This document shows, one piece after another, positions 1 through 59,982 of a DNA stretch of 60,003 nucleotides. The translations under genes and the position numbers were made by a program. Origin of the DNA: a virus (lineage: Duplodnaviria; Caudoviricetes); the IMG/VR virus record IMGVR_UViG_3300037408_000429, positions 1-60,003 of that record; one strand, 5' to 3'. Numbering within the stretch: the stretch's first letter is position 1; the number at the start of each line of letters is the position of its first letter. The notes under the pieces are model-generated. The model saw only the letters and a program-made list of their open reading frames with translations, made no database searches and was not told the DNA's origin.

Positions 1-12
1 GCCGGCGGGCGC

Positions 13-123
13 TGTCCGTGCAGGCTCCGCGGCGCGTCCAATGGCGGTCGGCGTCCGCCGCGGTCCCAGCTTGCTGCTGCCGCCACCAGAAGCAAGCTGC
101 CGCCGATACCTTGGGCTGGTCCT
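13..123. repeat. Terminal direct repeat, left copy (111 bp)
   Basis: TGTCCGTGCAGG...GGGCTGGTCCT is identical to 59872-59982. Confidence 0.9.
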
Positions 124-861
124 CCCTCCCTCCCTCCCCCCGGGCAACGGATGCCCGGAACCCACCCGACCATGCGAACGATAGGCGAATCCCGGCCACA
201 ATCTGAGCGTGATGATGTAGATATGCTCCGAAATGATGGATAAGTCTTGTGTTTACAGCACATGCCAAGGTTACATAATGGTCATTATCGAAAGCTGGAA
301 ACTGAATGCAAGTGTTGTGCCAAACCCCTAAACCCTGTTAATACTCTGTAAATGGCCCTAGGATCGTTTGGGATGTGCCCGGGCCACTACCGCACCACCC
401 AGGACCAAACGGACGATCCTGGGGCATCCTGGGGCCACAAATCCAGGACAGGCTCTACTTGCGCGGGTGACGCCGAGCCGGGGGTTGGGGCAAAATGCGT
501 CTCTCTCTGTCTACTTTTTAGCCACTCTTGATTATTTCGGCGATGTAATGATAGATATACTGGGCCTTGTGAGTTTTCCCTTGGTCCTGAGGCTTGGGTG
601 TTGAGGATTCTGGGCAATCAGTCCATCAAAAGAGGTAGAGATCCAATCAACAGACAAAATCCAGGACAACAACAAAACAAATAATTAAACAAATCATTTC
701 AATCAATTCATTTCTATACATTCGTGCAATTCTCCCATACGTGTGCAGGTAATCATTTATCTCTATAAAACGCGTATGCGTGCATAGGCATGCCCAGGAC
801 ACGATTGTATGGTTTTGTCCTGATTGGATCCTTAGTCTGAATTATTTTTCAGGTTGGGGTC

Positions 862-889
862 TTGACTTTTGCCTGCACGGCCGTAATTT
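862..889 (+). promoter_or_regulatory. Putative sigma70-like early promoter
   Basis: TTGACT-16 nt-TAATTT downstream of an AT-rich non-coding region and upstream of the first + strand genes. Confidence 0.35.
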
Positions 890-1158
890 GGTATTGCCGA
901 GGGAATCGACCCAACGCCAAAGCGGAGGTATGCCATGAAAGAGCTCGCGTTTGAGCTGATCTGCCTCATCTACTTCCTGGTCACCGGACAGGATGGGTTG
1001 TGATGGGCGGGGTGTGTAATGGATCTTAGCGGCGGAACACAACAGTCATTCCCCTGGGCCGAGTATCAGCCCGAGCTGACAATCCCGGCCGAGAACCAGG
1101 ACAAAGAAATTCCCGCGGAAGAATTCATCCGGCTCTACTTCCCGGCGATGGTGATAAA

Positions 1159-1593
1159 ATGAGCATCGACTGGTGTTTCGGCTCGAAACAGTGGCAGGAG
1201 TATTATCACGGCCGCAACAATGGGCACCGGGCCAAGGGTGATCGTGCTGCGCGGGCCCGGAAGGCATCCCTGGCCGCAATCAGGCCGCGGGCCATGGCAA
1301 CATGGGATGAACAGCGATCAAACGACCTGAGGGCCGAATCTGAGGCCCTGGCCGCCCTGGAAAATGCATGCCTGGACCTGTCCCTGGACCAATGGAACGA
1401 GGATCACGAGACCCCGGCCGCAATGGCCAACGCCATGAGGTGGATGATGAGCGAGAATCTGAACATCGAAGAGCCTGGACAAGACGCCTATGACTACTGG
1501 GCCCTGGTCTGTTTCGAGCTTGCCCTGGAGGACTGCGATATGGAGCTGGCCGACGCCCTGGAGACCCTGGAATCCCTGGAGGTAGCATCATGA
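1159..1593 (+). CDS. Hypothetical early protein (acidic)
   Basis: 144 aa ORF; ATGA overlap with next ORF. Confidence 0.7.
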   Translation: MSIDWCFGSKQWQEYYHGRNNGHRAKGDRAARARKASLAAIRPRAMATWDEQRSNDLRAESEALAALENACLDLSLDQWNEDHETPAAMANAMRWMMSENLNIEEPGQDAYDYWALVCFELALEDCDMELADALETLESLEVAS

Positions 1594-1796
1594 GCGCCAT
1601 GCGACATCTTGGGCAATACATCTGGACGGCACCAGGGAAAGCTCCTCATGCCGTCCATGTCTACTCTCTGGCCGTTCCTGGCACGAGCCAGGACAGGCTT
1701 TACCGCTGGTCGGTCGTCGCCGGGCGCTACTTTCCCCTGAGGCGATCAGTCTTTGAATCCCAGATGGTCCCCGTTGAGGGAGGGGGTAGGCCATGA
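1590..1796 (+). CDS. Hypothetical early protein
   Basis: GGAGG RBS, ATGA coupling on both sides. Confidence 0.6.
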   Translation: MSAMRHLGQYIWTAPGKAPHAVHVYSLAVPGTSQDRLYRWSVVAGRYFPLRRSVFESQMVPVEGGGRP

Positions 1797-2035
1797 GAAC
1801 CTTCAGTCAATTCCTCGAGTCCCAGGGCTTCCAGGCTGACGCATGCGAGGATCTTGAACACCCCGACTTCTATCGACTGGCAGAACGCCTATACCTGACA
1901 TTGGAGAGGATATCGCTCATGGCGTGTCGGTGCGTGGATGATGGTACGCCTTGCAGTGGTTGCACCAAGACAGGCCGTGAGGCGCCCAGGGTGGCTTGGG
2001 CCGCCATCAAGCCGATCCATCCGGAGATCCCATGA
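1793..2035 (+). CDS. Hypothetical early protein (Cys motifs)
   Basis: ATGA coupled; CRC..CSGC. Confidence 0.6.
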   Translation: MRTFSQFLESQGFQADACEDLEHPDFYRLAERLYLTLERISLMACRCVDDGTPCSGCTKTGREAPRVAWAAIKPIHPEIP

Positions 2036-2238
2036 AACTCGCCGAACACAATGCCGCTTTTGGGGCGAAACGTCGCCCGGACGAGATCGTACTGTGTAAC
2101 ACCATGGGCTATGGTGAGATCAGCCAATACGACAGCCGATGTTCCTGGTGCTGGCTTGGGCACGATCACCGCTGGGCAACCCATGACCAGAGCATCAATA
2201 CATTCTGTGCCTGCGAGGCCGACCATGCTGGGAAATGA
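2032..2238 (+). CDS. Hypothetical small Cys/His-rich protein
   Basis: Start MKLAEH coupled to the upstream stop (ATGA), GGAG RBS. Confidence 0.5.
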   Translation: MKLAEHNAAFGAKRRPDEIVLCNTMGYGEISQYDSRCSWCWLGHDHRWATHDQSINTFCACEADHAGK

Positions 2239-2431
2239 GATCATACTCGACACCCCCGCCATCCTTGAGGCCCTGGATGGCCACAACGAAAGCTACAACC
2301 TAGCCGCCCGAATGGCCGCCCGTGACCTGCGAGGCATGCCAGTACGGGCCCTGCCTGTGGTCACCGGCAACGCCTGTCCCCCAAAAATCTTCGTGCTGGT
2401 CCGACTCCGGGCCATGTTGATGAGGTAACCC

Positions 2432-2746
2432 ATGAACAACGTTGCGAACACAATACTGAGTCAACTTGGCGGCGGACGGTTCCGCCTGATGACTGGAGCC
2501 AGGGACTTTGTGGGATCCAACAATAGTTTAGCCTTCGCCCTGCCGCAGGGTTTCGCCAGGGACGGTATCAACCGGGTCCGAATTGTTTTGGACGAAACGG
2601 ACACCTACACAATGCAGGCCCTACACGTCAACATGAAGGGCGCCAGGAAAGGTATCGCGTCCATCGTCCATGAGACATCCGACCTTTACACAGAGGACCT
2701 CCAGCGGATCTTCACGGACTGGACCGGCCTCGATACCCATCTTTGA
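2432..2746 (+). CDS. Conserved phage hypothetical protein
   Basis: ANTILSQLGGGRFRLMTGA...DTYTM...FTDWTGL pattern typical of a widespread phage early-gene family. Confidence 0.7.
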   Translation: MNNVANTILSQLGGGRFRLMTGARDFVGSNNSLAFALPQGFARDGINRVRIVLDETDTYTMQALHVNMKGARKGIASIVHETSDLYTEDLQRIFTDWTGLDTHL

Positions 2747-2758
2747 TATGGAGCCTTC

Positions 2759-3019
2759 ATGCCCGGACGAGCCCATTTCTACGCCCTTGACACCCGCAAC
2801 CACGAGCTTGCGCTCTGGCGGTTCAGATTCCGCCAGGAGCGGGACCGCTGGGTGCAGGACGACACGCGCAGACACGCCCTCCACCAGGACATAGCCAAAG
2901 CCTGGCAGACGCGGATCGAAAAACTGCATGCCGCCGTGTTCTACTGGCGCCCGTTTATGGTTGATGGTGGGGGCACGGGTGAGCTTTGGCATCCTGCCGC
3001 GCCAAACCACAGGAGCTAA
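2759..3019 (+). CDS. Hypothetical protein
   Basis: GGAG RBS; in early operon. Confidence 0.55.
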   Translation: MPGRAHFYALDTRNHELALWRFRFRQERDRWVQDDTRRHALHQDIAKAWQTRIEKLHAAVFYWRPFMVDGGGTGELWHPAAPNHRS

Positions 3020-3020
3020 C

Positions 3021-3236
3021 ATGCCCAAACGCTGGGGAAAACGCACAGCGAACCTGACGGACGACCGCCTGGAGGAACTCCTGGAGTTCCGGATGCCCGA
3101 TTTCAAGGTCTTGGCGCACCGCTGGGACTGCTCTGCCCGGTATCTGGAGCACGTCTGGCACAGAGAGACGCGGCGGCTCCACAAACGCGAATCACCAAGA
3201 AAGAACAGCTTGGCGATCCTTCGGCGAAAGCCTTGA
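3021..3236 (+). CDS. Hypothetical basic protein, possibly HTH
   Basis: AGGAG RBS before MPKRWGK; 3' part of ORF 2928-3236. Confidence 0.5.
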   Translation: MPKRWGKRTANLTDDRLEELLEFRMPDFKVLAHRWDCSARYLEHVWHRETRRLHKRESPRKNSLAILRRKP

Positions 3237-3261
3237 TTGCAAATCCGTCTCGACTTATCTT
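3233..3261 (+). promoter_or_regulatory. Putative promoter upstream of the cassette arrays
   Basis: TTGATT-17 nt-TATCTT(GG); same -10 context as 12857. Confidence 0.4.
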
Positions 3262-3303
3262 GGGAGTGCAGCAGGAAACGCCGTTTGGCCAAAGAGGGTA
3301 GAA

Positions 3304-3522
3304 ATGATAGATAACTGCATCGCGCATTGGTTCAAAACAACCAGAGTCCCCGGCGGATGCACGGTCAAGCGCATGTTTTTGCGCTTCCGGCATCAACACC
3401 TAGGTGAGCCCGTATCTGAGGCCAAAATCGAACGGATCATGAAGGATCTTGAGGCCCGCGGCGAGGCCGAGCGCTACGGCGCCTATTGGTGGCCGATCAA
3501 GCTAACCGGCGCTGCCGCGTGA
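3304..3522 (+). CDS. Hypothetical protein
   Basis: 72 aa ORF ending inside the first partial attC-like site. Confidence 0.5.
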   Translation: MIDNCIAHWFKTTRVPGGCTVKRMFLRFRHQHLGEPVSEAKIERIMKDLEARGEAERYGAYWWPIKLTGAAA

Positions 3523-3580
3523 AAGGAGAAACATGAAAAACGAGCAGGCCCTTGGGTCCGAGTGCAGCGCCGGGTTAGGC
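3498..3580 (-). mobile_element. Partial attC-like site #0 (left core box lost)
   Basis: CAAGCTAACCGG...GGTCCGAGTGCAGCGCCGGGTTAGGC; 29 bp identical to the right arm of site #1. Confidence 0.7.
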
Positions 3581-3604
3581 GGTGCCGAATGATGAGGAGA
3601 GAGT

Positions 3605-3793
3605 ATGAAAGTGATGATTGATGACGTTGAGTACATACCGGCAGAGCCCGCGCTCGACCTGTTTGGAGACGGGGTGAAACACGCCTGCAAGATGCTAGTG
3701 AGATACATGGAACGCGAGAATGTGGACCTGTTGGACATGGGAGCCGTTGAACTAACGGCGATTGTTAGAGCAGAAATGAAACGTGACGCCTAA
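3605..3793 (+). CDS. Cassette-borne hypothetical protein
   Basis: GAGGAG RBS; stop TAA lies in GCCTAAC of site #1. Confidence 0.7.
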   Translation: MKVMIDDVEYIPAEPALDLFGDGVKHACKMLVRYMERENVDLLDMGAVELTAIVRAEMKRDA

Positions 3794-3916
3794 CGGCTCA
3801 AGCTCACCGGCCCAGCCGCCAGCGAATAGATAAAAGGAGATGAGATGAACGAACCTGTAAGCAAAACTGATGAGTTGCCAGTCACGGCTGGGTCCGAGTG
3901 CAGCGCCGGGTTAGGC
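3788..3916 (-). mobile_element. attC-like site #1 (129 bp)
   Basis: GCCTAAC...GCTCACCGGCCCAGCCG / CGGCTGGG-T-CCG-A-GTG-C-AGC...GTTAGGC imperfect palindrome. Confidence 0.85.
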
Positions 3917-4093
3917 GCGTGCTGCTTTGTGGATGGGAAATTGACCGACGATCCATACCCCACAGCCGAACAATGCACCTGTGGCGGGAATCTCGAATTT
4001 GAGTATGGGTTTTGCCGACACGGGCTCGGGGTTTTCGAACGGTGCGTGGATTGTGGCACGGTCTTTAACTTTCACAAGGACACGGGCGGATGA
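3845..4093 (+). CDS. Cassette-borne Zn-ribbon-like protein starting inside attC #1
   Basis: AAGGAG RBS and ATG in the hairpin loop; CTCG and CVDCG motifs. Confidence 0.65.
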   Translation: MNEPVSKTDELPVTAGSECSAGLGACCFVDGKLTDDPYPTAEQCTCGGNLEFEYGFCRHGLGVFERCVDCGTVFNFHKDTGG

Positions 4094-4094
4094 C

Positions 4095-4115
4095 GCCTAA
4101 CGACTGAGTTGATTC
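4095..4115 (-). mobile_element. Lone core site / possible attI-like end of first sub-array
   Basis: GCCTAAC right after an ORF stop with no matching right arm; minus strand GAATCAACTCAGTCGTTAGGC. Confidence 0.45.
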
Positions 4116-4133
4116 TGTCCAGAAAGGTGAGCC

Positions 4134-4307
4134 ATGTCTTACAATCCAAAATGGTGGCGCATCTGGAAACGTGCCGCCGTGAGCAAAAACTCCCGCACCA
4201 CGAAAGCATCAGAACGTCGCCTTCGCTGGCAGTGGCGGCACGCCGCGAAGCGCGGGCGCTGGATAGCTGACGTGATATACGGCGGAATCCGTCATCCCAG
4301 GCACTGA
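4134..4307 (+). CDS. Small basic Trp/Arg-rich protein (57 aa, not in ORF track)
   Basis: AAAGGTGA RBS; MSYNPKWWRIWKRAAV...HPRH*. Confidence 0.55.
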   Translation: MSYNPKWWRIWKRAAVSKNSRTTKASERRLRWQWRHAAKRGRWIADVIYGGIRHPRH

Positions 4308-4323
4308 TGTCCAGGAGCAAGCC

Positions 4324-4605
4324 ATGAGCCTCGTGCCTATTCCACCACCTGGAGATATAGAGATTGAAATTAACGCTCTCCGAGCCCGCGTCGCAGAACG
4401 GGAGGCATTAATGAAATGTAAAAGGCACATAACAGTGAATGGCAGGTGCCCCGAGTGCCTGGAAGCCCGTGTAGTGGAACTGCTGGAAACGTTAGACCGC
4501 TACCGCAATGCACTGGAAGAACTCTACGGGGCGTCCATTGCCATGAACGAAGTTAATCTTCGCGGGTTCATTCGTGAAACCGTGAAAAACAGCATTGACA
4601 CCTAA
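4324..4605 (+). CDS. Hypothetical coiled-coil protein
   Basis: AGGAG RBS; stop TAA in ACCTAAC of site #2. Confidence 0.7.
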   Translation: MSLVPIPPPGDIEIEINALRARVAEREALMKCKRHITVNGRCPECLEARVVELLETLDRYRNALEELYGASIAMNEVNLRGFIRETVKNSIDT

Positions 4606-4695
4606 CGAAAGAGCTTAACTGGCGCTGGGGTTCGGCGCCTTGGAGGAACCGACCGGACGCAGAGCCCAGCGTCCGGGTAGAACGAGAGGTTAAGC
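4600..4695 (-). mobile_element. attC-like site #2 (96 bp)
   Basis: ACCTAAC...TGGCGCTGGG / CCCAGCG-T-CCGG...GTTAAGC. Confidence 0.8.
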
Positions 4696-4697
4696 GC

Positions 4698-4850
4698 ATG
4701 TGGAAGGTGTCTTGGCTTTGGACATTCTGGGCCATCGGTATTGTTTGGGATGCCCCGCACTACTGGAGGCATTGGGGGAAGTTCATCGGCCTCCATTTGG
4801 GGCCATTATGGATCGCGTATCACTCGGAACGAGACTATTTCGACACCTAA
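4698..4850 (+). CDS. Cassette-borne Trp-rich 50-aa protein (not in ORF track)
   Basis: MWKVSWLWTFWAIGIVWDAPHYWRHWGKFIGLHLGPLWIAYHSERDYFDT*; fills the space between two attC-like sites exactly, stop in ACCTAAC. Confidence 0.65.
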   Translation: MWKVSWLWTFWAIGIVWDAPHYWRHWGKFIGLHLGPLWIAYHSERDYFDT

Positions 4851-4905
4851 CGATTGGCATAACCGGCACGTGGAACACGTGTCCGTGTTCAAGGAGTGGT
4901 TAGAC
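4845..4905 (-). mobile_element. attC-like site #3 (61 bp)
   Basis: ACCTAAC...AACCGGCACGTG-GAA-CACGTG-T-CCG-T-GTT...GTTAGAC. Confidence 0.8.
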
Positions 4906-4921
4906 CGATTGGGAGAAATCT

Positions 4922-5380
4922 ATGGGACTTACTCTTGCGCCAACGACCTATGAAGAAGCCTGTCATTTCGTTGGTTTGCATCACCGGCACCATACCCCGC
5001 CGCAGGGCTGGAAATTTGGCATTGCTGCCTGTCTTGACGGAAAGGTCGTCGGAGTAGTGATGGTTGGCCGCCCCGTTGCCCGCCATGCCGATGACGGCTG
5101 GACGCTGGAGGTTACTCGATGCTGCACCGATGGGACCCAAAACGCATGTTCGACGCTTTACGCAGCTGCTTGGCGAGCTGCGAGGGCACTTGGATACCAC
5201 AGGCTTATCACGTTCACCCTGCCACAAGAAGGAGGCGCAAGCCTTCGTGCCTCGGGTTGGCGGGAACTTTACCGAACGAAGGGCGGGTCTTGGGACCGCG
5301 AAGACCGGCCCAGGGTAGACAAACATCCGACCCAGCCAAAAACACTTTGGGAAATTACGGATCATAAGGAATCGGCCTAA
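4922..5380 (+). CDS. XF1762-family protein (GNAT/Mom-like fold), cassette-borne
   Basis: HHRHH..P.G.KF, GRPVAR..DDG.TLEVTR.CTDGT.NACS.LY, E.GASLRASGW motifs; stop in GCCTAAC. Confidence 0.75.
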   Translation: MGLTLAPTTYEEACHFVGLHHRHHTPPQGWKFGIAACLDGKVVGVVMVGRPVARHADDGWTLEVTRCCTDGTQNACSTLYAAAWRAARALGYHRLITFTLPQEGGASLRASGWRELYRTKGGSWDREDRPRVDKHPTQPKTLWEITDHKESA

Positions 5381-5471
5381 CGTATGGAGTTAACCGGCGC
5401 TTGGGCTGCCGGACCTAGAAACTTGCCGGACGCCACAAGCCCAAGCGTCCGGGTTGAACGCCTGGTTAGGC
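5375..5471 (-). mobile_element. attC-like site #4 (97 bp)
   Basis: GCCTAAC...GTTAACCGGCGCTTGGGCT / AGCCCAAGCG-T-CCGGGTT-G-AAC...GTTAGGC. Confidence 0.85.
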
Positions 5472-5485
5472 GTGTGGAGAACAAA

Positions 5486-5629
5486 ATGGATTTTGATCGA
5501 TTTGAACGGAACCACAACCGCGCGATGCGCTTCGGTTTCTTGGCAGTGATCGTGAACGCTGCACTTGGTCTTGGACTTTTGGGAACAATCATCTGGGTTG
5601 CCGCGCATTTCTTGAAGAAGATTTGGTGA
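5486..5629 (+). CDS. Cassette-borne small membrane protein (47 aa)
   Basis: GGAG RBS, MDFDRFERN..., one hydrophobic helix. Confidence 0.7.
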   Translation: MDFDRFERNHNRAMRFGFLAVIVNAALGLGLLGTIIWVAAHFLKKIW

Positions 5630-5630
5630 A

Positions 5631-5717
5631 GCCTAACGCCCGGAGATAACCGGCGCGGGACGGACGAATGGATGAGCTGGCGGTCAAATCCGCGTCCGGT
5701 TCATCGACTGGTTAGGC
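5631..5717 (-). mobile_element. attC-like site #5 (87 bp)
   Basis: GCCTAAC...GATAACCGGCGCGG / CCGCG-T-CCGGTT-C-ATC...GTTAGGC. Confidence 0.85.
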
Positions 5718-5762
5718 CGCACGGGACGAGATGTTAAGAAATCCTTTACAACTGGAGGAACG

Positions 5763-6002
5763 ATGGGAGCGAAGATTAGCGATGTTCTAAGGAAAGAAGG
5801 GCATCCTGGTTATGCCATTGATGTAGCCGCTCTTGAGAATTTGGTGGTGAAACTACGGAATGACCTTGAAGCCATGACCGCCCGTGCCGCCATCAACGGC
5901 AAGATTGCGATGCGCTATCAAGACGCCCTGGAATACGTTAGGGACTACAGCAATGACCCCGGTGTTGTTCAACGTGCCAAGGATGAACTGGGTGCGGCCT
6001 AA
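5763..6002 (+). CDS. Cassette-borne hypothetical protein
   Basis: GGAGG RBS; stop in GCCTAAC. Confidence 0.7.
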   Translation: MGAKISDVLRKEGHPGYAIDVAALENLVVKLRNDLEAMTARAAINGKIAMRYQDALEYVRDYSNDPGVVQRAKDELGAA

Positions 6003-6120
6003 CGCCCCAAGCTAACCGGGGCAACAGCCAGCACCAGCTTGCGGGGAGATTGGAAGGACGAATGCATGAAGGAGGAATCCTGTAAGTGGCTGTTGGCTCC
6101 GGTTGAGCGTGAGGTTAGGC
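5997..6120 (-). mobile_element. attC-like site #6 (124 bp)
   Basis: GCCTAAC...GCTAACCGGGGCAACAGCCA / TGGCTGTTGGC-T-CCGGTT-G-AGC...GTTAGGC. Confidence 0.85.
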
Positions 6121-6147
6121 GGGGACGAAAACTTGAGGAGAAGGACC

Positions 6148-6336
6148 ATGGATGAAACCCAAACCATTGAAGTGAGGACATCGGATGACTACTACCGGCT
6201 GAAAATGTTGGTAGCAGAACGGGACAAATACAAGAAAGCATTAGTGAGGATCCAGGATGTGTGTTTTGGATCCAGTTCCCAATCGGAAGTTGAACATTTT
6301 GCCTATAACACGTCGAAGGCTGCATTGGACGCCTAA
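6148..6336 (+). CDS. Cassette-borne hypothetical protein
   Basis: GAGGAG RBS, MDETQT...; stop in GCCTAAC. Confidence 0.7.
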   Translation: MDETQTIEVRTSDDYYRLKMLVAERDKYKKALVRIQDVCFGSSSQSEVEHFAYNTSKAALDA

Positions 6337-6388
6337 CGAACCAAGCTAACCGGCGCCGAAGGCGTCCGGTTGAGCGCGAAGGTTAGGC
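6331..6388 (-). mobile_element. attC-like site #7 (58 bp, minimal 59-be-like)
   Basis: GCCTAAC GAACCAA GCT AACCGG CGCC GAA GGCG T CCGGTT G AGC GCGAAG GTTAGGC. Confidence 0.9.
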
Positions 6389-6400
6389 GGGCCAGCACAA

Positions 6401-6751
6401 ATGAAAGGAAATTCGATGACGATTGACGAACTGAAAGCACTGGAACGGAAGGCAACTCCTGGACCATGGGACAATCCAGAATGGGATGCCGTAGAGCGTT
6501 TCTATGACGTTTGCGCGGGAATTGGTAGTGAACAGCATCAAGTATTTGTCACTCAAGATATTTGCAGCAAGAATGCAGGAGAAAACGCCAGGTTTATCGT
6601 GTCTATCCGCAATCTTGTGCCCGAGTTCCTGGCGCTGTGGGAAGCCTGCAACGAACCTGCGCCCAGAGCGGATAGAGGCGCTGAATGGATGGAACGGATC
6701 GTCCATGCTCGGAATGACCTGAATTTTAAGGCAGCAAACATGGACGCCTAA
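6401..6751 (+). CDS. Cassette-borne Ead/Ea22-like phage protein
   Basis: ELKALERKATPGPW...NARFI...RN motif; stop in GCCTAAC. Confidence 0.65.
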   Translation: MKGNSMTIDELKALERKATPGPWDNPEWDAVERFYDVCAGIGSEQHQVFVTQDICSKNAGENARFIVSIRNLVPEFLALWEACNEPAPRADRGAEWMERIVHARNDLNFKAANMDA

Positions 6752-6772
6752 CTTTGAATTAGGCGAACTGGA
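6746..6772 (-). mobile_element. attI-like site at the array end
   Basis: Minus strand CAGTTC-GCCTAAT-TCAAA-GTTAGGC: L box, 5-nt spacer, GTTRRRY; resembles the class 1 attI core CAGTCG-CCCTAAA-ACAAA-GTT. Confidence 0.65.
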
Positions 6773-6874
6773 CGCGCTCCTAAATTAGAGCAAACACATA
6801 CTGCGTCTCAACACAAACCCAACAAAATCAACACGGAACCGCCGTAAAAACAGGTAAATGAGACCGGATGGAAT

Positions 6875-7075
6875 ATGAGCAAAATAAGCAACGCCAGAGC
6901 GGCGAAGGTGCTGGACAAGCGCCTGGAATTCCTCGAAGAATACATCCGCAGCTATGAGTCTGAAACCGGGAACGCCTGCGGGTTTGCCCGAGAGGAATTC
7001 AGGGCACTGACCCAGGCCACGGTGAGCTTGGGGCACCCCACGGAACGCACCGTTCCCAAATTGGAGAGACCATGA
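6875..7075 (+). CDS. Hypothetical protein
   Basis: ORF coupled to next. Confidence 0.6.
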   Translation: MSKISNARAAKVLDKRLEFLEEYIRSYESETGNACGFAREEFRALTQATVSLGHPTERTVPKLERP

Positions 7076-7299
7076 GCGAACAACAAAGCATCGACCTGAG
7101 TCTTCAGGCCGAATCCCTGCGAAACAAGGGGGCGGCCATCCTGGGCAAGATGATTCCAGACGCGGACAAGGGCATGATTATGGAATTCATGCACTGCGCC
7201 ATAGGGTCCGCGCTGCTTGAGATCATGTCTATCCAGGCGTTATACCAAGAACCAGTGCCCGAAGAAGATCCTGCCGAAGGACTTGGCGGGACGGACTAG
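7072..7299 (+). CDS. Hypothetical protein
   Basis: GGAG RBS, ATGA overlap. Confidence 0.6.
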   Translation: MSEQQSIDLSLQAESLRNKGAAILGKMIPDADKGMIMEFMHCAIGSALLEIMSIQALYQEPVPEEDPAEGLGGTD

Positions 7300-7459
7300 G
7301 AGCGAATCGTGTCCACAAAATGTTGCCTGCTCACCAAGAATGGCCCCAGGTTTTTCGACCGGCTCCAGGATCTCGAAGCCTACGCCAAGGAACATGGGCT
7401 ATGGGACGAAGAGAACTGGCGCGAGTCCATGAACGCACTACTCGAAAAGGAGAAACAAA

Positions 7460-7945
7460 ATGTCAACAACGCCTGAAATCAAGATCCCGTGTTTCCACCC
7501 AGGAGTCTTCGCCATCGCCCTGGCGCTTCAAAACACCTTCAACACCCAGGAAGGTTTCGACTTCGTACCTGAAAAGGTCATGAAGGACACCCTGGAAGGG
7601 AGACCCGTGCTCGACTTGGTCAAGGGGTATGAGCTGGCGCAGTGGTGGGATCTCATGGCGCGGGCCTACCCAGAGACCAACAAACTCAAAATCACCACCG
7701 TGATGGCCTGCGAAGGCGCCGTGATGGCCAAGCCTGTAACCGAATCCTTTCTGCATTTCCAGGTAGCCGTGGATCCGGTGAACATGGTGGATCAACTGTG
7801 CCAGAAGTCCGTCGGGTATCTGTGCAAAGCATGGCCCGACTTTTTTAAGGCCGCTTCCAGCACGAGGGAACATCGGATTGCATCTGAAGCCACGGCTGGC
7901 GACAACATCTCGCCATTGCTTCGCGGAAGCGAGGAGGTTCAATGA
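7460..7945 (+). CDS. Hypothetical protein
   Basis: AAGGAG RBS, 161 aa. Confidence 0.7.
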   Translation: MSTTPEIKIPCFHPGVFAIALALQNTFNTQEGFDFVPEKVMKDTLEGRPVLDLVKGYELAQWWDLMARAYPETNKLKITTVMACEGAVMAKPVTESFLHFQVAVDPVNMVDQLCQKSVGYLCKAWPDFFKAASSTREHRIASEATAGDNISPLLRGSEEVQ

Positions 7946-8445
7946 GGATCTTCACAAGCATGGGCGAGATGCAGGTCCAGCTTCAACGTCTGCACGATCT
8001 GACCAGTAGGCCATGCTGGGGCGCAGATGGAACACCTTTCCCGGAACACTTGCCCATGGACAAGATCGTGGAGCGGTGCGCGATCAATCTGGAATCACAA
8101 TACGAAAATGCCGGTGAGAACCTTGTTCGACGATTAGACGACATGGCGACCACGATTTCCACCGGGCTTATGAAGATGGTCCACGCCATGCCTGGGACAT
8201 CAAGCACGGACAATAACACGAGAGCATTCTACGTATTCTTTGGTGCCTTCTGCTTCGCCGAACTGCCTACCCAAGAAGAGGCCGACCAGTGGATAGAGGA
8301 ACTATTAGATACCATCAAACAGTTCGCCATGGCCCAGGTCCACGAATCCTTTTCTGCCGCCTTAGACAATCGCCCCGCCAACTACATCGACCCCATGACC
8401 ATGACTATCGGAGGAATCTATGAGGATTCTGAAACTACAGGCTGA
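7942..8445 (+). CDS. Hypothetical protein
   Basis: GAGGAGG RBS, ATGA overlap. Confidence 0.7.
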   Translation: MRIFTSMGEMQVQLQRLHDLTSRPCWGADGTPFPEHLPMDKIVERCAINLESQYENAGENLVRRLDDMATTISTGLMKMVHAMPGTSSTDNNTRAFYVFFGAFCFAELPTQEEADQWIEELLDTIKQFAMAQVHESFSAALDNRPANYIDPMTMTIGGIYEDSETTG

Positions 8446-9784
8446 CAACTTCAAACGACTGAAGGCCGTTGACATCACCCCGAAGGGGGCCATTGTCCCG
8501 ATCACCGGCAAGAACGCGAACGGGAAGACCAGTGTCCTGGATGCGATCTGGGCGGCCCTGGGTGGGGCATCTCACATCCAGTCCGAGCCTATCCGGAAGG
8601 GCCATAACAAGGCCAAGATTCGCCTGGACCTGGGTGAGATCGTCGTCACACGGTCCTTCACCAAGGGCGGGACAACCCTGGCGGTCGAGAACAGCGAGGG
8701 TCTGCCCTACAAGAGCCCCCAGAAGATGCTCGATGATCTAGTGGGGGCACTGAGCTTCGACCCTCTGGAATTCACCCGGATGAAGCCGCGGGACCAGTAC
8801 GACACCCTGCGGGCCCTGGCCAAGGTGGAGATCGACATCGACAAACTGGATGCCCAGAACCGGGCGGACTACCAGCGTCGAACCGACATCAACAGGGATG
8901 CCAAGCTGCTTCGAGCCCAGGCCTTCGGGATCCCCACCGTGGAGGATCCCGGTCCCGCCGAGGACAGCGTGGAAGTGTCCGATGCGCTGCGGGCCCTTCG
9001 TGAGGCCAAGGACGAGGCCCGGGCCCAGAATGACAATCGCGCCGAACTGGAATGCACCATCGAGGCCAAGCGGGCCATCTTCACCCAGAAGCGGCAAGAG
9101 CTGGTCGAACTGAAGGAGTCCATCTCTGCGCTTGAGGACACCCTGTCTTCCATCCCGGTGACCGCAGACACCATGGCGCTCGACAGCCGGATCCTAGAAT
9201 TGGAGACCACCCTTGCCCAGGCCAGCGCCCGAGCAGAGGCCAGGAATGCCCACCTTTTGACGATCCAACGCAAGAAGGACCTGGAGACCGCGGCCGAAAC
9301 CAAGGAAAAGGAATCCGAAGACCTTACTGCGGCCATGGAAGCGCGAGAGAAGGCCAAGCAGGACGCCATCGCCAGGGCCGACATGCCCATTCCTGGTCTG
9401 TCGTTCGGGGAAGGCATGGTCCTATTCAATGGCGTGCCCTTCGATCAGGCATCCAGCGCAGAACGACTCAGGGTTTCCACGTCCATCGCCATGGCGGCCA
9501 ACCCAAAGCTGCGGGTGATTCGCATTGAGGATGGGTCCCTGCTGGACAGCGACTCGATGGATCTGCTCACCCAGCTCGCCACCGAACACGACTTCCAGGT
9601 GTGGATTGAGGTTGTGGACGGTTCTGGCAAAGTCGGCGTCTTCATCGAGGATGGGGAGGTCAAAGCCGACAACCAGGACGCGGCAGAGAAGGACGCCCCG
9701 CCCGAGACCGAACGGACGTTGAACGAAACAGAACTGCCGTCAACGAACGTTGAACGGACGTTGAACGATCTCGACATTCCCTGA
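8420..9784 (+). CDS. SMC/RecF-like AAA ATPase with coiled coil
   Basis: NFKRLK, Walker A GKNANGKTS, long coiled coil, ASSAE signature-like and IEDGSLLD Walker B-like. Confidence 0.85.
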   Translation: MRILKLQADNFKRLKAVDITPKGAIVPITGKNANGKTSVLDAIWAALGGASHIQSEPIRKGHNKAKIRLDLGEIVVTRSFTKGGTTLAVENSEGLPYKSPQKMLDDLVGALSFDPLEFTRMKPRDQYDTLRALAKVEIDIDKLDAQNRADYQRRTDINRDAKLLRAQAFGIPTVEDPGPAEDSVEVSDALRALREAKDEARAQNDNRAELECTIEAKRAIFTQKRQELVELKESISALEDTLSSIPVTADTMALDSRILELETTLAQASARAEARNAHLLTIQRKKDLETAAETKEKESEDLTAAMEAREKAKQDAIARADMPIPGLSFGEGMVLFNGVPFDQASSAERLRVSTSIAMAANPKLRVIRIEDGSLLDSDSMDLLTQLATEHDFQVWIEVVDGSGKVGVFIEDGEVKADNQDAAEKDAPPETERTLNETELPSTNVERTLNDLDIP

Positions 9785-26106: not shown

Positions 26107-29100
26107 CTACTCCTGTCCGCCTTCTTCCTTCTCGTCCGCGAGATGCCTGCGAACGGTCTTGGAAGCCGTGTTTAGTTTGGAGTACCATGCTATGGCGTCA
26201 TCAACGAGTTCTCGATCATCCTTGTTTAGAGAGTTGAGAAACTGTCTACGCCATTTCAACGGCACAGATCCCAGTGGATGTGCGGCCTTGACCGATTGAC
26301 GAATGGACGAAGGCTTGCCGCCCAGTCTGTAATACTCTTCGAGCCAGTGTTTTGATTTTTCTTCGTCACCCCATTGTGCTGCTCGCTTGTGATAGTAGAG
26401 AGCATTGCCCTTCTCCGTTGAATTTCCGCTGTATTCGAATTCTCTGTGCTTGGAATTCTTTAGCCACGTTACCGCCAGATCCCTTGTCAGATAGTAGGAC
26501 GCTTCCCCGGGGTCCGTTGAATAGATCACGAGCGCATCCATGAGAGATTCCGCAGTGCCGGCCTTTCTGGCGGGTTTGTCGGTGACCTTGTTCCAAAGCT
26601 TGTCCAGGGGAGCTACGTTTCTGGCCAGGTAGGCGACTCTGTCTCGAATAGGTTGCCCTCCAGGCTGTAAGCTGGCTCCTTTTTTCCATATAGAAGGATA
26701 GGCAGATCTTCCAAGCGTGATCTCAAAGATAGTCTTGCTTACCGGTTCCCACCCTTGCAGGATACGCTCTACAGGGGCTTTGGCCGCATTGGCAGCTATG
26801 TCCTTGACGGTTGTTTGACCCTTGTTTAGATCCTTCATTTGAGAAGTGAAGTCGCTCAAGTTGAACCAGTCCAGGGCGTCCACCAGTGCGCCGTCCATGC
26901 GGATGTAGCGAATGGATCCGTCAGGACGACGCCCCAGAACCAGGAAGTTCTTCACTCTGGTTGTCCGGCGTAGCAATTCTGTTTCCTTTGGATACCGCTT
27001 GTTGTTCCACATCCACATGAGCGCCAGAAGCAGGTTGATCTTCAAGGCGAACAAGGCATACCTGGTTCCGATCCTGAGACCCAGAGAAGCCGCTGTTCTT
27101 CCTATGCGAGCCGACCTGCTTCCGTCCTCGTAGGCCGTGTTCTTGAAAAGGCGCATGTAGCGGGGCGCGTTGATTTCTGTCCAACTATGGAACGGACGAA
27201 GGTGCCGGCGAATCCACATGCCAGCCAAACTCACGTTCCCATAGTCTCCAATGAGCTCTCTTGATAATTTGGCCGCTTTGTCATCCCGTGTCTTCAGGGC
27301 ATCAATCTCATTGCGCTTGGATGCCGCATACATCGTCTTGCCTTTGGCGAGTTCATTCTGGAAGAACCGATAGGCTGCAAGGCGCAGAATGTTTTCTCGC
27401 CATGACGTAAATGCCTTTAGCCCTCCCCATACCTTCTGGATAGCGTTCCCGTTGGGGCGGTCGCTGGTCAGAAGCCTGAATGCTCCTTCCTTGTCGATGT
27501 CGGGAATTTCGGTAATCGTTAGCCCGGATTCTACGACACCGACTTTGACCGCATGTTGCATTTCAGCCTGCATGCCTTCTGGGGCGTCGTGTGTAACCTG
27601 GTAGCTCCATAGGTCGCTGGCTGCCTTCATGAAGTAGCTAAGTATCCTGGGATCATAGGCCAGTGCGATGTCAAGATCTCCGCTTAGGTTGTTCATGTTG
27701 TAGCGCAGGACCCGCATTGGACTGATTAGCTGCCACTGCTTCCAGGTGCTTTGGGCACCCACCCAGAAGCGTTCTACCGCGTTGCGATCCTGGCTCTTGA
27801 AGTTGTTGAGTTGAGCAGCCAAATTGCTAGGAATGACCCATTCTGTTTTCTTTGAGCCCAGGGCCAGAAGGGTCCGAATGTCTTCCTTCTCCAGCTGCTT
27901 ATTCCCGGACATGACTTTGTCCAGCACACTTTCCTCGACGGTCATAGCAGGGAAGAAGTGGCTCCCTTTCTCTGGCTGCCAGATGGTGTAGTCTTCTGGA
28001 ACCATGTCTTTCCAGGTGGTGAACTGATCCCCAAGGATTTCCCTGATCTCGGACGCGCTGTAATCATCCGGATTCATGCCCCTGTCGATCATGGCCTGTT
28101 CGTTCACATCCTTCGCTATTTGCTTCAACTGGGGCTTGATGTTGGACGATTGGTCCAATCGGTCCAGGGTTTCCTTTTTGATTAGGATAGCCATGGCGTC
28201 GGAAAGCCACTCGAACTCGGCCTGTTTGTAGTCCGTGTTGAAGTCGTGGGCCCCGCCCTTGCGCCCGATCTGGAATCCCTTCTTGTGCGCGTGGAGGTCT
28301 GATCCAACGGCCCCGGGAAAGCTTTCTCTGTCTCTCAGGTAGTCCATGACCTGGCGGTGGTAGTAACTCTCCACGTTCTCCAGTGTCTCACTTGGTAACA
28401 GTCCATTCATCACCAGGGATTCAACCACCGACCGGGACTGATCGTTCCTGATTTTCAAGGCATCTGCTATGGCCTTGTTGGCTGGGTCATTCAGGATTTT
28501 CTCAAACTTGTCCAGGTCTTGACGGGCATGGTCTACGCTCTTATATCCGAATGGCAGTTCGCCCGTTCCATCGTCTATCCCTTCATCGACGTTACGAATG
28601 ATATCCCGAGTGATTATGACCCGGTTCATCAAGTCCTGCTGTGCTGGAGACATCTTCCTCACTACGTTGGCTACCATGTCATGGGCCACCGTCTTGGCGT
28701 AGTTTGCTCCGGCCTCATACTGGCGCAGGTAATCCTGAACGAGCGCCATCTGTGCGCTGTCATTGGGATTTATATACTCGAAGTGCCGCAAGAATGCCTC
28801 CTTTACTCCGCGCAGGCCTTCTCCAACCCTCTTCCATGTTGATTCGGACACGACTCCCTTGTTGGCCTGGTATCTTTTCTCTACTTCTGCAAAGTCAGAT
28901 GCAACAATCACTGCCCCATTGTTTTGGCGCTTACCAAACAGGTCATACAAGAACTTTGACAGAGGGCTCGTAAAGCCATAGGCCATCTCTGCTTCTTGCT
29001 CCTGGTCTCGCTTGGAATCAAGATAGGCCGCAATCGCTTCCTGATAGGCTTCCCCGTGGCGTTCGTACCATTGTGGAGACAGCATGTCATCGAACCAGCG

Positions 29101-32100
29101 ATTGAACTCTTCTTTGGTGTCTCCTGTAAATCTCTTTTCATTTGTGAGACCTTCTGCCGCCATATCCGTGTACAGCATGTCTTCTAGAATCTTCAGCAGG
29201 TTCAATTCTTTCTCAGAGTCCCCCTCTGCCTTGGCGTCATCCGCCTTGGACAACGGCCCTGCGTACTGCTCAAGATCGTATCCGGCGAGTTCCAGACGCC
29301 TGAGCCGGAACTGGATGGTCTTCCTGACATCGGACGACTGGCCCTCATCAATAGCCTTCTTGATTTCTTCCAGCTGCTTTTGCGTCTCTTGAAGCTTGGC
29401 TTCGCCGTGATACTTGGCTTCAACCATTGCCTGGTGCTTGGCCAGGAGTTTTTTGCCCTCTTCCAACTGCTCGGAGGCCCATCCCTGGATCTGGGGGATT
29501 TTCTTCACGCCATTCTCAAGGGACATCTTGAGACCGGCTAGGGTTCTAGCATCGCCTGATGCCACCTGGACGCCATCAAGCGAGATAGACCAGGACTCGC
29601 CGAGTCCTTTCTGTTCTCCGCGTCGATCTGTTATCTGGAACCCATACCCTCCGGGCAGTTTGAGCAACCCGGTGTTCAGCAATTCTACGACATCTCCCTT
29701 TTCGCTCTTCTCTTTGAGTGTCAGTTTCTCTTGGACAGTCTTGAGGATCTTGGGGATTGCCTCCTCCATAGCCTTGATTTCGACCGAATCCAGGACCTTC
29801 TTTCGTTTCTCTCGATAGGCAATGGTCCCCCACTTGTAGGGATCGCGTATCAACAAATCGGCCGCGTCCCTTATGGCCCATCGCTGCGCCGCGAAGAATG
29901 AGTCTTTCTCGGATTGCAGCATGTTGACCTGATTCTGGAGTGATATTTTCTTGGCCACCCGCTGGTCGCCAGTGAAGGCGGCCATCATCTCCTCATAGGT
30001 CATTGTGATGTCGCCAGGATCATCGGCCTCGTTGGCGATTTCTGCCCCCAGATCCATCACATCATCAGCAAATCGCTTCTTGTTGTCCAACATCTGGGCG
30101 AAGAATGCGTCTGCGCTTCCCTCTGTCGCGTAGTTGTAGATGTAGATCGGATCAAACAGGTTCCCAGATCTCTCGATGCGCCCATTTCGCTGTTCCTGGT
30201 TGGCCGGCGTCGTGGAGAGCTCCAGGTGGTGGGCTGCTATCAGGCGCTCCTGGATGTTCACACCGACGCCAAGATTCATGGTTCCACCCATAATGACCCG
30301 GACCTCTCCCGCATTCACCTTGGCAAAGATGGCATTCCGCTTCTTCTCGTTGTCAGGAAGGCGGTCAACAATCTCGTCTGCCGGAATGCCGCGCTCAACG
30401 AGCATCCGCTTGATTTCGGCCAGCATGTTGAACCGTGCGGCCTCTGGCATCTTGAAGCATCTTCCGGGCCCGTAGGCGGCGGGGCTCATAAAATGCTCGC
30501 AGAAGACTACCTGGGTCCCCTTCTCTCCCTGGGATTCCTTGTAGTGCTTCATAATGTTGTCGCACAGATCCACAAGCTTCCCTTCCTTGGGCGCCGGCAG
30601 ATATGGGTCCAGCAGGCGGGGGTCCAGCGCCGCCTGGGCGGATCGGGTGTAGGCCGTGATGGGGATATGCCTTGTCTCGACCTTGACCTTGCCGGCCCTG
30701 TCCCATGCCCCAAGAACCGAACGAATGTAGGACACGATCTGCTGGCTGGTTTCATCAGGCTTCACGACACGGAGGATGGGTCCTCCGGAGGCCAAGGATG
30801 GCAGTTTGGTCCTCTTGATCTGCTTGGCCGTGACACGGTGCATCACTTGGCCCAGCATGGAGCGCAGTTCAGGGATGTTAGAGAACCGACGAAGGCGCGT
30901 CACCATCTTGAAGACGCCCGTAGCATCCAGTTCCGGCTTGCTGGATATTTCCCCGAAGGTCTTCACGAAGGCATCAAACTCCGATATTCCAAGGGATTCC
31001 AGAATGTCGGGGCGCAGATAGCGCAGGTTCGTCCAGATCTCAGCCATCGTGTTCGTGATCGGGGTTCCAGTCATGCAGATGAGGCGGCCGTTCCTCTCGT
31101 GGATGGCCTTGGTCTTCAGATAGAAACTCATGGCCCGCTTGGAGGATTGCGAGTCGATACCCTTCAGGCTGGTAAACTGGGTCCAGAAATCCAGCCGCTT
31201 GAAAGTATGGCTCTCGTCAACTATTAGGGCGTCTGCCTGTAGGTCATCCCAGGTCAGAACTCGGTCTGTCTTGCGCTCCAAGAGTTCGTCCAGGGTGGTG
31301 CCGCGGGCATGTTTGGACTTTTCCGCCTGCTTGGCGCGTTTCCGAGCCTGCTTCTCGTCCACCTCCTTGGGCGCCCTGCCTTCCTCGACTGGTGCTGCTT
31401 GAGCCTGGAGTTGGTTCAACCACTCCAGGCGACCGCGAAGTGCCTGGGCGAATAGGTCTCGACTGCCTCTGGAAAGGTCCAGTTTGAGGCCGCGGACCAC
31501 TTCCTCTACCTTGGCCTTTTCGGCTCGGACGAAGGCTTCGGTGCGAATAGGATCGTCAGGGATGGAAGTTAGATCCTCGTGGGTAAGAATTGCCATGTCG
31601 TAGTCCATGGTCGCCAGACGATGTAAAAACGTCTTTCTTGCCTTGGCGCCTCCGGTGGAGGGCCGCACCATGATGCGACTGTTGGGATAAAGCTGCCGGA
31701 CCTGGGCGGCGAACTGCTGGGCCACAGACCGGGTGGTGGAGACGATGACCCGGTTCGCTTTCCCTAGTCGGCGAAGTTCCATGGCGATGGCCCCGCCCGT
31801 AATGGTCTTGCCGGCGCCCACAACATGGGCCAGGAGTGTGTTCTGGATCAGGCCAGAAAAGACACCTTCAATCTGGAACTTCTCCATAGAGAAGGGTTTG
31901 CCGTTGAAAATCGTCGCCTGCCCCGGGAAGCTGGTCACCGGCATGGTAGGCATCTTGGGGTAAACCAGAACATTGAATCTATCGTTGTAGATTCTTTCGA
32001 TTTCTACAGTGTGTTCGTTGTCTTCCTCCCTTAGCCACTCGCTAAAGGCGTGGCGCAATTCCAGCACCTTTTCCCTGGCCATGGATGTCAGAAGCTTGTT

Positions 32101-59871: not shown

Positions 59872-59982
59872 TGTCCGTGCAGGCTCCGCGGCGCGTCCAA
59901 TGGCGGTCGGCGTCCGCCGCGGTCCCAGCTTGCTGCTGCCGCCACCAGAAGCAAGCTGCCGCCGATACCTTGGGCTGGTCCT
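59872..59982. repeat. Terminal direct repeat, right copy
   Basis: Identical to 13-123. Confidence 0.9.

Follow-up and report, generated by a model that had tools for sequence, protein, structure and literature searches.

This study concerns an array of short genes separated by imperfect hairpins in the window, a 60,003-nucleotide stretch of uncultured viral DNA (IMG/VR record IMGVR_UViG_3300037408_000429, Caudoviricetes). The hairpins resemble attC, the recombination sites of integron gene cassettes. In our analysis, the region from 3498 to 6765 is best read as a genuine integron cassette platform in a podovirus-like phage, assembled by exchange of the type carried out by a host integron integrase (IntI), and a probability of about three in four is given to this reading. 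Of its attC sites, seven are intact and two are decayed, and one end of the platform bears a core resembling the attI1 site known from class 1 integrons.

Both strands of the whole 60 kb were scanned for RYYTAAC...GTTARRY pairs spaced by 40-160 nt, and seven distinct sites were obtained, all within 2.6 kb (3788-6388) and none elsewhere; an extra pairing at 4613-4695 is an alternative nested within the second site (4600-4695). Coordinates and sizes agree with the seven complete sites of 58-129 bp listed in the initial annotation, and the partial site which it had placed at 3498 is also real (3498-3583, without a 5' box). Two further elements were found: at 4095-4101 a 5' box stands alone, and the array ends at 6745-6765 in a short element of 21 nt. 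The seven sites have the same polarity (+), are closely spaced and are accompanied by no intI, which is the arrangement of a cluster of attC sites lacking integron integrases (CALIN). Each interval between sites holds one to three short plus-strand open reading frames (ORFs) with a GGAG-like motif ahead. The earlier statement that the TAA of the box usually serves as the stop codon of the upstream ORF holds at seven of the nine boxes (3788, 4600, 4845, 5375, 5997, 6331 and 6746), and at boxes 4095 and 5631 a TGA stop lies slightly upstream instead.

The array sites are genuine attC in every structural feature examined. Inverted R boxes (RYYYAAC / GTTRRRY) are present in all seven. The consensus fold, derived from an alignment of nine short sites of three viral contigs, begins with an R box of 7 bp, continues with a spacer that leaves about 7 nt of one arm and 5 nt of the other unpaired, and ends in an L helix of 13 bp with two unpaired bases in its 3' arm, G16 and T23 counting from the 3' end and six pairs apart; some sites have three unpaired bases, at positions 16/20/24. 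In the published description of the recombining bottom strand of attC, the 5' box contains an AAC triplet, the arm facing it has extrahelical bases (G16 and T23 or T24, with a 6-bp stem between them and an optional third base at 20), the spacer measures 5-6 nt and the whole site 57-141 nt (Nivina 2016, PMC5027507). The phage sites lie inside this length range and have a variable terminal structure. The attC (59-base element) architecture proposed earlier, with conserved arms and variable loops, is borne out by the boxes, the spacer, the L box, the extrahelical G and T and the loop, the arms being conserved and bulged and the loops ranging from 3 to about 70 nt. The minimum-energy fold of site 6331-6388 has the textbook shape, in which the R box forms 7 bp, the spacer stays unpaired and the G and T bulge out of the L box, and single-stranded DNA folding of the seven sites gave z values of -1.7 to -4.2 against shuffles. 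Across 38 viral sites, in an alignment which was fitted to the model and is hence biased in its favour, 91.6% of the cells pair as compared to 78.0 +/- 0.9 when shuffled, and both-side changes occur in 94 cells as compared to 30.3 +/- 4.2 (0/500 shuffles as high), affecting eight of the 13 L-helix pairs; on sliding the partner columns as a control, pairing falls to 22-46%. Nine terminator-like elements were called in positions 1-9000, a number equal to that in shuffles, and none coincides with a site.

The kinship with bacterial sites was analysed with a covariance model (R1), which was built from the nine phage sites only, models the attC bottom strand and served as a surrogate for the curated IntegronFinder attC model. 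In the window, R1 recovered the seven sites with 28.8-75.4 bits, all on the plus strand, and the partial site with 16.6 bits; the only other signals are far weaker and come from the reverse strand at two of these sites. There was no match in the control DNA, which comprised 317 kb around distant kin of a neighbouring gene and 257 kb of metagenome loci. A pattern derived from the sites matched at least 120 bacterial genome stretches, and in 80 of these loci R1 detected 233 sites at E <= 1e-6, organized in single-polarity arrays with a spacing of a few hundred bases. Five of these genomes were examined for an integron integrase, which lies above the TIGR02249 curated cut-off in four (447-488 bits) and is broken in the fifth. 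The metagenome-assembled genome (MAG) of a Casimicrobiaceae member (L161), whose IntI is 61.5% identical to IntI1, has 28 R1 matches (24.6-62.4 bits) starting 450 bp off intI, and Simplicispira psychrophila has three starting 380 bp off; in both cases all of them are on the intI strand. In the class 1 integron of E. coli plasmid p23, R1 recognises the aadA1 attC on the antisense strand of that gene, where it scores 46.9 bits as against only 11.5 bits on the sense strand, and the bulged G and T of this site align to the bulge columns of the model. Further, the first 25 nt of site 6331 show 96-100% identity to many attC sites in the array of the Casimicrobiaceae MAG and in three 'beta proteobacterium' MAGs (short-query blastn, top five subjects). 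The phage sites share a family with the attC sites that adjoin bacterial intI genes. As a separate observation, intI of a Sulfomarinibacteraceae MAG (L163, G007) is directed toward its array, with 23 R1 matches within 16 kb, and several Acidobacteriota MAGs contain very large arrays of this same attC type.

In integrons, every arrayed attC is a chimera because the crossover falls in the R box, and the preceding unit takes with it the six outermost bases of the 5' box. Pairing of each 3' end was therefore scored over ten positions (the box and three flanking bases) against its own, the next and all other 5' ends. In five phage arrays, the mean pairing is 8.00 of 10 with the next site, 7.23 with the own site and 7.28 with any other. 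Within-array permutation gave 240 observed as compared to 218.4 +/- 4.4 expected (0/5000), and for two bacterial integrons the values are 355 and 322.9 +/- 4.9 (0/5000). In two of the other viral arrays (L148 and L002), a variant 3' box finds its complement in the equally variant 5' box of the following site rather than in its own. Since the best pairing is with the next site's 5' box, the units were exchanged at the R box; this pattern is the one expected from site-specific exchange, and scattered homologous crossovers would not give it. The core box, where the initial annotation had expected breakpoints, is where the chimeric R boxes place the exchange.

All genes of the array lie on the attC bottom strand, a point absent from the initial annotation. 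Bacterial cassettes and the CALIN of Tetrasphaera phage TJE1 are arranged the other way round, and this mirror orientation is counted as new. Whereas the gene of a classical cassette lies on the attC top strand and is read from the attI/Pc side, it is found on the bottom strand at all seven window sites, and coding on the plus strand of the window is anchored by a Mom-like acetyltransferase (E 5e-37). In 39 of 44 viral sites, including the seven of the window, the 5' box marks the end of a bottom-strand ORF with a length of 40 aa or more. Where only one strand has such an ORF, it is the bottom strand in 26 viral sites and the top strand in 2, the figures for 106 bacterial and control sites being 12 and 34. 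In 14 bacterial arrays the longer inter-site ORF lies on the strand opposite to R1 in 60 intervals, on the same strand in 11 and is tied in 22, whereas the window and every other viral array have their genes on the R1 strand. In phage TJE1, the R1 matches (31.1 and 16.1 bits) lie opposite the annotated genes, i.e. in the classical orientation. In gene sense, the phage unit runs from the C of the box through attC, a ribosome-binding site (RBS) and one small gene to a stop codon within the last six bases. As start codons lie within the loops of sites 3788 and 3498 and the frame continues across the 3' arm, the gene is tied to the attC upstream of it. No promoter excess was seen in the array. According to Richard et al. 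2024 (PMC13108822), attC sites fold and recombine best if lagging-strand synthesis uses their bottom strand as template. A replication fork moving with transcription would give sites with bottom-strand genes that favourable setting, and a lagging-strand advantage is a possible reason for the mirror polarity, depending on the direction of phage replication.

The last cassette is followed by a 5' box and a short sequence with no attC body. Read on the minus strand, positions 6745-6765 give CCTAA-NN-CAAAG|TTAGGC, and attI1 of plasmid p23 gives CCTAA-NN-CAAAG|TTA with identical spacing. The core sits at the end which attC polarity requires for attI. The same core closes the arrays of two other, unrelated viral genomes, G001 and G003, and these two were the only ones found in a wider scan for it; beyond the core, the three phages remain more weakly similar for about 70 nt, to about 6860. 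From this resemblance, the terminal element is taken with moderate confidence as a candidate attI, the alternative being a collapsed attC. The earlier designation of the array as a CALIN is correct as regards an array without integrase, and the attI1-like core at its end would make it more than a plain CALIN. An imperfect 16-nt palindrome with CCTAA/TTAG motifs is also present at 6783-6798, about 20 nt past the core, and could be a further protein-binding site.

The window contains an exact 111-nt repeat (13-123 = 59872-59982), both copies of which are flanked by poly-G/C runs, and the assembly circularises through it on a unit of 59,859 bp. Logan contigs from two sequencing runs agree with this closure, one of them extending about 20.8 kb leftward past position 13. 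The IMG/VR catalogue entry gives the record as linear and 84% complete; since the terminal repeat closes the record, the genome is complete despite this entry. Terminase, portal/adaptor, internal virion protein, tail-spike-like proteins, a primase-helicase and an ORF of 4,266 aa are encoded, and the closest cultured relatives of the portal are the HMO-2011, CRP and Rhizobium RHph podoviruses (25-31% identity). Genes run rightward over about 1-16.6 kb and mostly leftward in the remainder; a sigma-70-like promoter match is located at 252-279, and the array occupies 3.5-6.8 kb of the rightward block of small genes. The absence of a tyrosine recombinase, which had been noted from the ORFs, was confirmed by profile search, as no match to the tyrosine recombinase (PF00589), integron integrase (TIGR02249) or serine recombinase (PF00239) families was obtained in the whole closed record. 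As the phage has no integrase, the enzyme would come from an integron-bearing host, and because the genome is complete and without a recombinase, a host IntI acting in trans would be the simplest origin of the exchange signature. The attC type points to a betaproteobacterium as the probable host, its IntI being class-1-like. The view of the initial annotation, that the phage borrows a host integron integrase to acquire and shuffle early accessory genes, is partly supported. On the minus strand at 26107-38907, the giant 4,266-aa ORF is followed by a 1,239-aa ORF matching virion-structural and tail-spike families. The giant ORF had raised the idea of an N4-like phage with hairpin promoters, which was dropped because the portal relatives are of the HMO-2011/CRP/Rhizobium type and the array sites are far longer than such promoters, N4-like hairpin promoters being much shorter.

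The same kind of array is present in about 10 further, unrelated IMG/VR contigs, identified by pattern scans and R1. L002 has 13 sites, G003 (L148) has 8, and G001 has 4, lying across both contig ends; at E <= 1e-3, 4, 3, 2 and 2 sites are counted in L145, L147, L143 and L144, respectively, and L150 and L151 have one site each (L146 and L152 are duplicates of L145 and L150). These contigs share with the window and with each other almost only the sites, besides four pairs of distantly related cassette ORFs with 30-75% identity, a divergence too great to place breakpoints. The match between L145 and L143 spans the downstream attC and may reflect mere general attC similarity. No tyrosine recombinase was found in five other array-bearing viral records, three of which are 92-100% complete. 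In the 55,216-bp G003, the arrays L148 and L149 lie about 35 kb apart with the same sites and identical scores, which looks like about 1.5 copies of a genome of about 35 kb. In L002, a 132-nt site at 7787-7918 was caught by the box scan and missed by R1, and the last site (8086-8163) has its 3' half swapped for unrelated sequence.

Four public wetland runs were examined at the level of contigs, which cannot reveal excision joints. Logan contigs break at 5631-5660 in one run (X1) and at 6079-6108 in another (X2), each run bridging the break of the other at a depth of about 15-17, and loose assembly ends are found at 5375 and 5471. Run X1 also contains a copy of attC 5375-5471 with at least 90% likeness, a shorter loop and unrelated flanks on both sides. 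Another contig carries the 30-nt arm of 5631-5660. A 42-nt skip at 5401-5444 comes from a different attC copy with other flanks.

Several points weigh against an exchanged cassette platform. Taken alone, the window array gives a modest pairing signal (48 as compared to 43.9 +/- 1.9, p 0.029) which stems from the flanking base, and the variant boxes at 4600 and 4845 complement neither their own nor the neighbouring site; the bias of the fitted covariation alignment is to be counted here as well. The likeness to attI amounts to about 13 of 15 positions, several of which are expected of any R-box-like element, and the attI regions of two betaproteobacterial integrons (G006, G009) look different. 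No recombination event was observed, the contig data showing only breaks inside attC and one re-flanked copy. Two sites (3498 and 4095) are decayed, so that at least part of the array is immobile. No close phage relative was found, the best having 47-49% protein identity in a neighbouring gene; a search with the neighbouring 454-aa protein gave 18 viral and 41 metagenome loci with at most 47-62% identity, and R1 gave no match in the viral loci and 37 of the 41 metagenome loci of these relatives (4 were left out as viral duplicates). None of the 11 window cassette ORFs is related to anything in 944 kb of bacterial integron DNA (132 loci).

The array could instead be a static relic, acquired by a phage ancestor and no longer recombined, with hairpins kept as stabilisers, attenuators or processing sites of early mRNA, or decaying. 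Besides the decayed sites (3498-3583 without its 5' box, and the lone box at 4095) and the lack of a joint in the contig data, this reading accords with the position of the sites, which are intergenic on the transcribed strand and fold well, some ORFs beginning in their loops. Such a relic is nevertheless unlikely, as DNA features of use to IntI only (extrahelical G/T, 6-bp spacing, AAC) are conserved over 38 sites of unrelated phages, the R boxes are chimeric, arrays have the sites and the attI-like core in common but hardly any of their cargo, and no site was called terminator-like. The repeats could also be portable homology by which phage or host homologous recombination shuffles genes without an integron integrase, and the 25-30 nt arms are indeed near-identical among sites and assemblies break or branch within them. 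T4-type phages have promoter-associated intergenic stem-loop repeats and shuffle modules by homologous recombination; such repeats likewise lie between small early genes and could promote exchange, whereas the array sites are attC with the R-box exchange signature. With own-site pairing showing no link above random and next-site pairing exceeding both, exchange is placed at the R box, and since homology would also leave the conserved bulges and the attI-like core unexplained, this account is considered improbable. An artefact, either a chimeric assembly of phage and bacterial integron or chance attC-like regulatory hairpins, is the least probable of all and hardly credible: the record is a metagenomic contig and the Logan contigs break within two of the sites, but each run spans, with equal depth, the place where the other breaks, the gene content is phage-like and its orientation the reverse of that in bacterial cassettes, and chance is excluded by the 25-nt identity to bacterial attC and the score on the aadA1 attC.

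In the cassette platform reading, each unit would begin with the C of a 5' box and end with the AA of the following box, and the units would have been assembled through IntI-type exchange at the R box. During infection, the single-stranded plus strand of the sites would fold, and host IntI would excise, insert and reorder cassettes among replicating or co-infecting phage genomes. As the genes are on the recombining strand, it is the rightward transcription of the phage that reads them, and transcription from attI would not; a cassette passing from the phage to a bacterial integron, or in the opposite direction, would end up antisense. IntI is described as being able to insert cassettes at simple genomic sites (Loot et al. 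preprint), and such insertion may be a route for founding an array of this kind. The data show the anatomy and family of the sites, the exchange signature, the mirrored genes, the lack of an integrase and the recurrence in unrelated phages, whereas the origin of the integrase, its activity today, any role for the attI-like core and the cause of the mirror polarity are inferred.

The features of the array are collected in the table below.

Table. Elements of the cassette array and the reading frames it carries, in window coordinates (R1, covariance model; z, fold against shuffles)
Feature	Position	Strand	Remarks
Degenerate distal attC	3498..3583	+	L box, loop and 3' arm kept; R1 16.6 bits, E 0.065; fold z -2.49
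Cassette ORF, 62 aa	3605..3793	+	Stop is TAA of next 5' box; no family found
attC, 129 nt, bottom strand on +	3788..3916	+	R1 46.6 bits, E 1e-9; fold z -2.64
Cassette ORF, 82 aa, Cys-rich	3845..4093	+	Begins in loop of attC 3788 and continues across its 3' arm
Lone 5' R box GCCTAAC	4095..4101	+	Remainder of attC missing; no R1 match
ORF, 93 aa	4324..4605	+	Stop is TAA of 5' box of site 4600
attC, 96 nt, weakest of the seven	4600..4695	+	R1 28.8 bits, E 4.5e-5; fold z -2.42
Cassette ORF, 50 aa, hydrophobic	4698..4850	+	
attC, 61 nt, three unpaired 3'-arm bases	4845..4905	+	R1 52.8 bits
Cassette ORF, 152 aa, Mom-like acetyltransferase	4922..5380	+	phrog_1384, E 5.2e-37
attC, 97 nt, three extrahelical bases	5375..5471	+	R1 55.8 bits; fold z -4.16
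Cassette ORF, 47 aa, hydrophobic	5486..5629	+	From RBS-preceded ATG; TGA 2 nt ahead of box
attC, 87 nt	5631..5717	+	R1 59.7 bits
Cassette ORF, 79 aa	5763..6002	+	
attC, 124 nt	5997..6120	+	R1 57.4 bits; fold z -3.77
Cassette ORF, 62 aa	6148..6336	+	
attC, 58 nt, best of the set	6331..6388	+	R1 75.4 bits on + as against 16.0 on -; fold z -3.49
Last cassette ORF, 116 aa	6401..6751	+	Weak P22 Y8K6 / Ead-Ea22-like leads
attI-like core, 21 nt (candidate attI)	6745..6765	-	CCTAA-NN-CAAAG|TTA; hairpin fold z -3.84

Site 3498 has lost about 4 nt from its 5' R box, so ORF 3304-3522 runs into it. The loop of attC 3788 contains both the RBS and the start codon of ORF 3845, and the lone box at 4095 is followed by ORF 4134-4307 ahead of ORF 4324-4605. 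The open frame of ORF 5486-5629 extends back to 5384. Arm and loop sequence of attC 5997-6120 is common to L002 7199-7301. It was also observed that the frames 3534-3593 (a mini-ORF of 19 codons) and 3845-3916 start within attC loops, cross near-identical 3' arms and encode the same nine-residue stretch.

As regards the cargo, the Mom-like ORF has phage relatives, its Pfam Mom match (E 1.2e-4) being under the cut-off; by the annotation of its family, it is a putative DNA-modification enzyme which may shield the phage DNA against restriction. ORF 3845-4093 has a weak SWIM match (E 0.035), also under the cut-off. The suggestion that the cargo includes an Ead/Ea22-like protein is retained only as a weak lead for ORF 6401-6751, which gave no Pfam match and stays under both bars of the Atlas comparison (feature score 0.87, TM 0.61); a relative of this ORF with 30% identity is found in the G001 array. 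The broader view of the initial annotation, that the cargo is phage-like rather than made up of resistance genes, is supported. Among deposited phages, the 3.7-kb region is matched solely through the Mom-like gene.

Clusters of attC in phages without integrase have already been published: 17 CALINs were reported from phage genomes on deposit, virulent isolates accounting for three, and five of six tested phage attC sites recombined with attI1 under IntI1 (Qi et al. 2023, Front Microbiol, PMC9892861). As described there, the phage CALINs are like the window array in having attC between small ORFs, no IntI and a cargo including DNA-modification genes. The arrays described here differ in their size and homogeneity, their recurrence in unrelated uncultured phages, the attI-like end and the reversed polarity, the last two being new. 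The CALIN of TJE1 is small, with three attC and four ORFs in that account, as compared to seven sites here and 13 in L002, and its R1 matches lie opposite the genes, whereas those of the window array are on the gene strand. An attI-like end was not seen in the portions of that article which describe the virulent phages, whereas the window array has an attI1-like core; a mirrored case may exist among its 17 CALINs. The best attC gave no blastn match at E <= 1 in 50,697 deposited phage records, and a literature search on attC in phages yielded no further paper on phage-borne arrays.

The chromosomal integrons of betaproteobacteria (such as that of L161) and the class 1 integron resemble the phage array in attC family and in the rule of chimeric R boxes, and the attI1 core of the class 1 integron is similar to the terminal element of the phage. 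They differ in that the phage array lacks intI and Pc, has its genes on the bottom strand, is read toward the attI-like end and carries a phage-like cargo with nothing in common with the sampled bacterial arrays. Inverted cassettes, in which the gene is likewise reversed relative to attC, are described for toxin-antitoxin genes of sedentary chromosomal integrons (Richard et al. 2024, PMC13108822). In bacteria such cassettes are a minority, as seen from the interval counts given above, and have their own promoters, whereas in the phage array every unit is reversed and there is no excess of promoters.

A wider proposal, tentative and given somewhat less than an even chance, is that virulent phages infecting integron-bearing bacteria of soil and wetland maintain a mirror-image integron without an integrase, made up of an attI-like site and of attC cassettes with genes on the recombining strand, and trade early and counter-defence genes with each other through host IntI, as a phage-only pool of cassettes. 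If so, phage cassettes would be silent once captured by a bacterial integron, and the same would hold for bacterial cassettes, those for defence among them, in the phage, so that polarity would separate the two pools at the level of expression. Recent work, including the Darracq preprint, describes integron cassettes of bacteria as stores of anti-phage defence systems, and phage and bacterium would then use the same recombination machinery on both sides of their conflict. This would also provide a concrete mechanism for the mosaic and fast-changing early regions of virulent phages. Further, a shared attC type could mark the hosts of uncultured phages and may be used in host prediction. Integrons are otherwise known as bacterial devices, and the arrays described here would be their phage counterpart, in which as many as 13 attC cassettes of reversed polarity, with a Mom-like DNA-modification gene in the cargo, are joined to an attI-like site.

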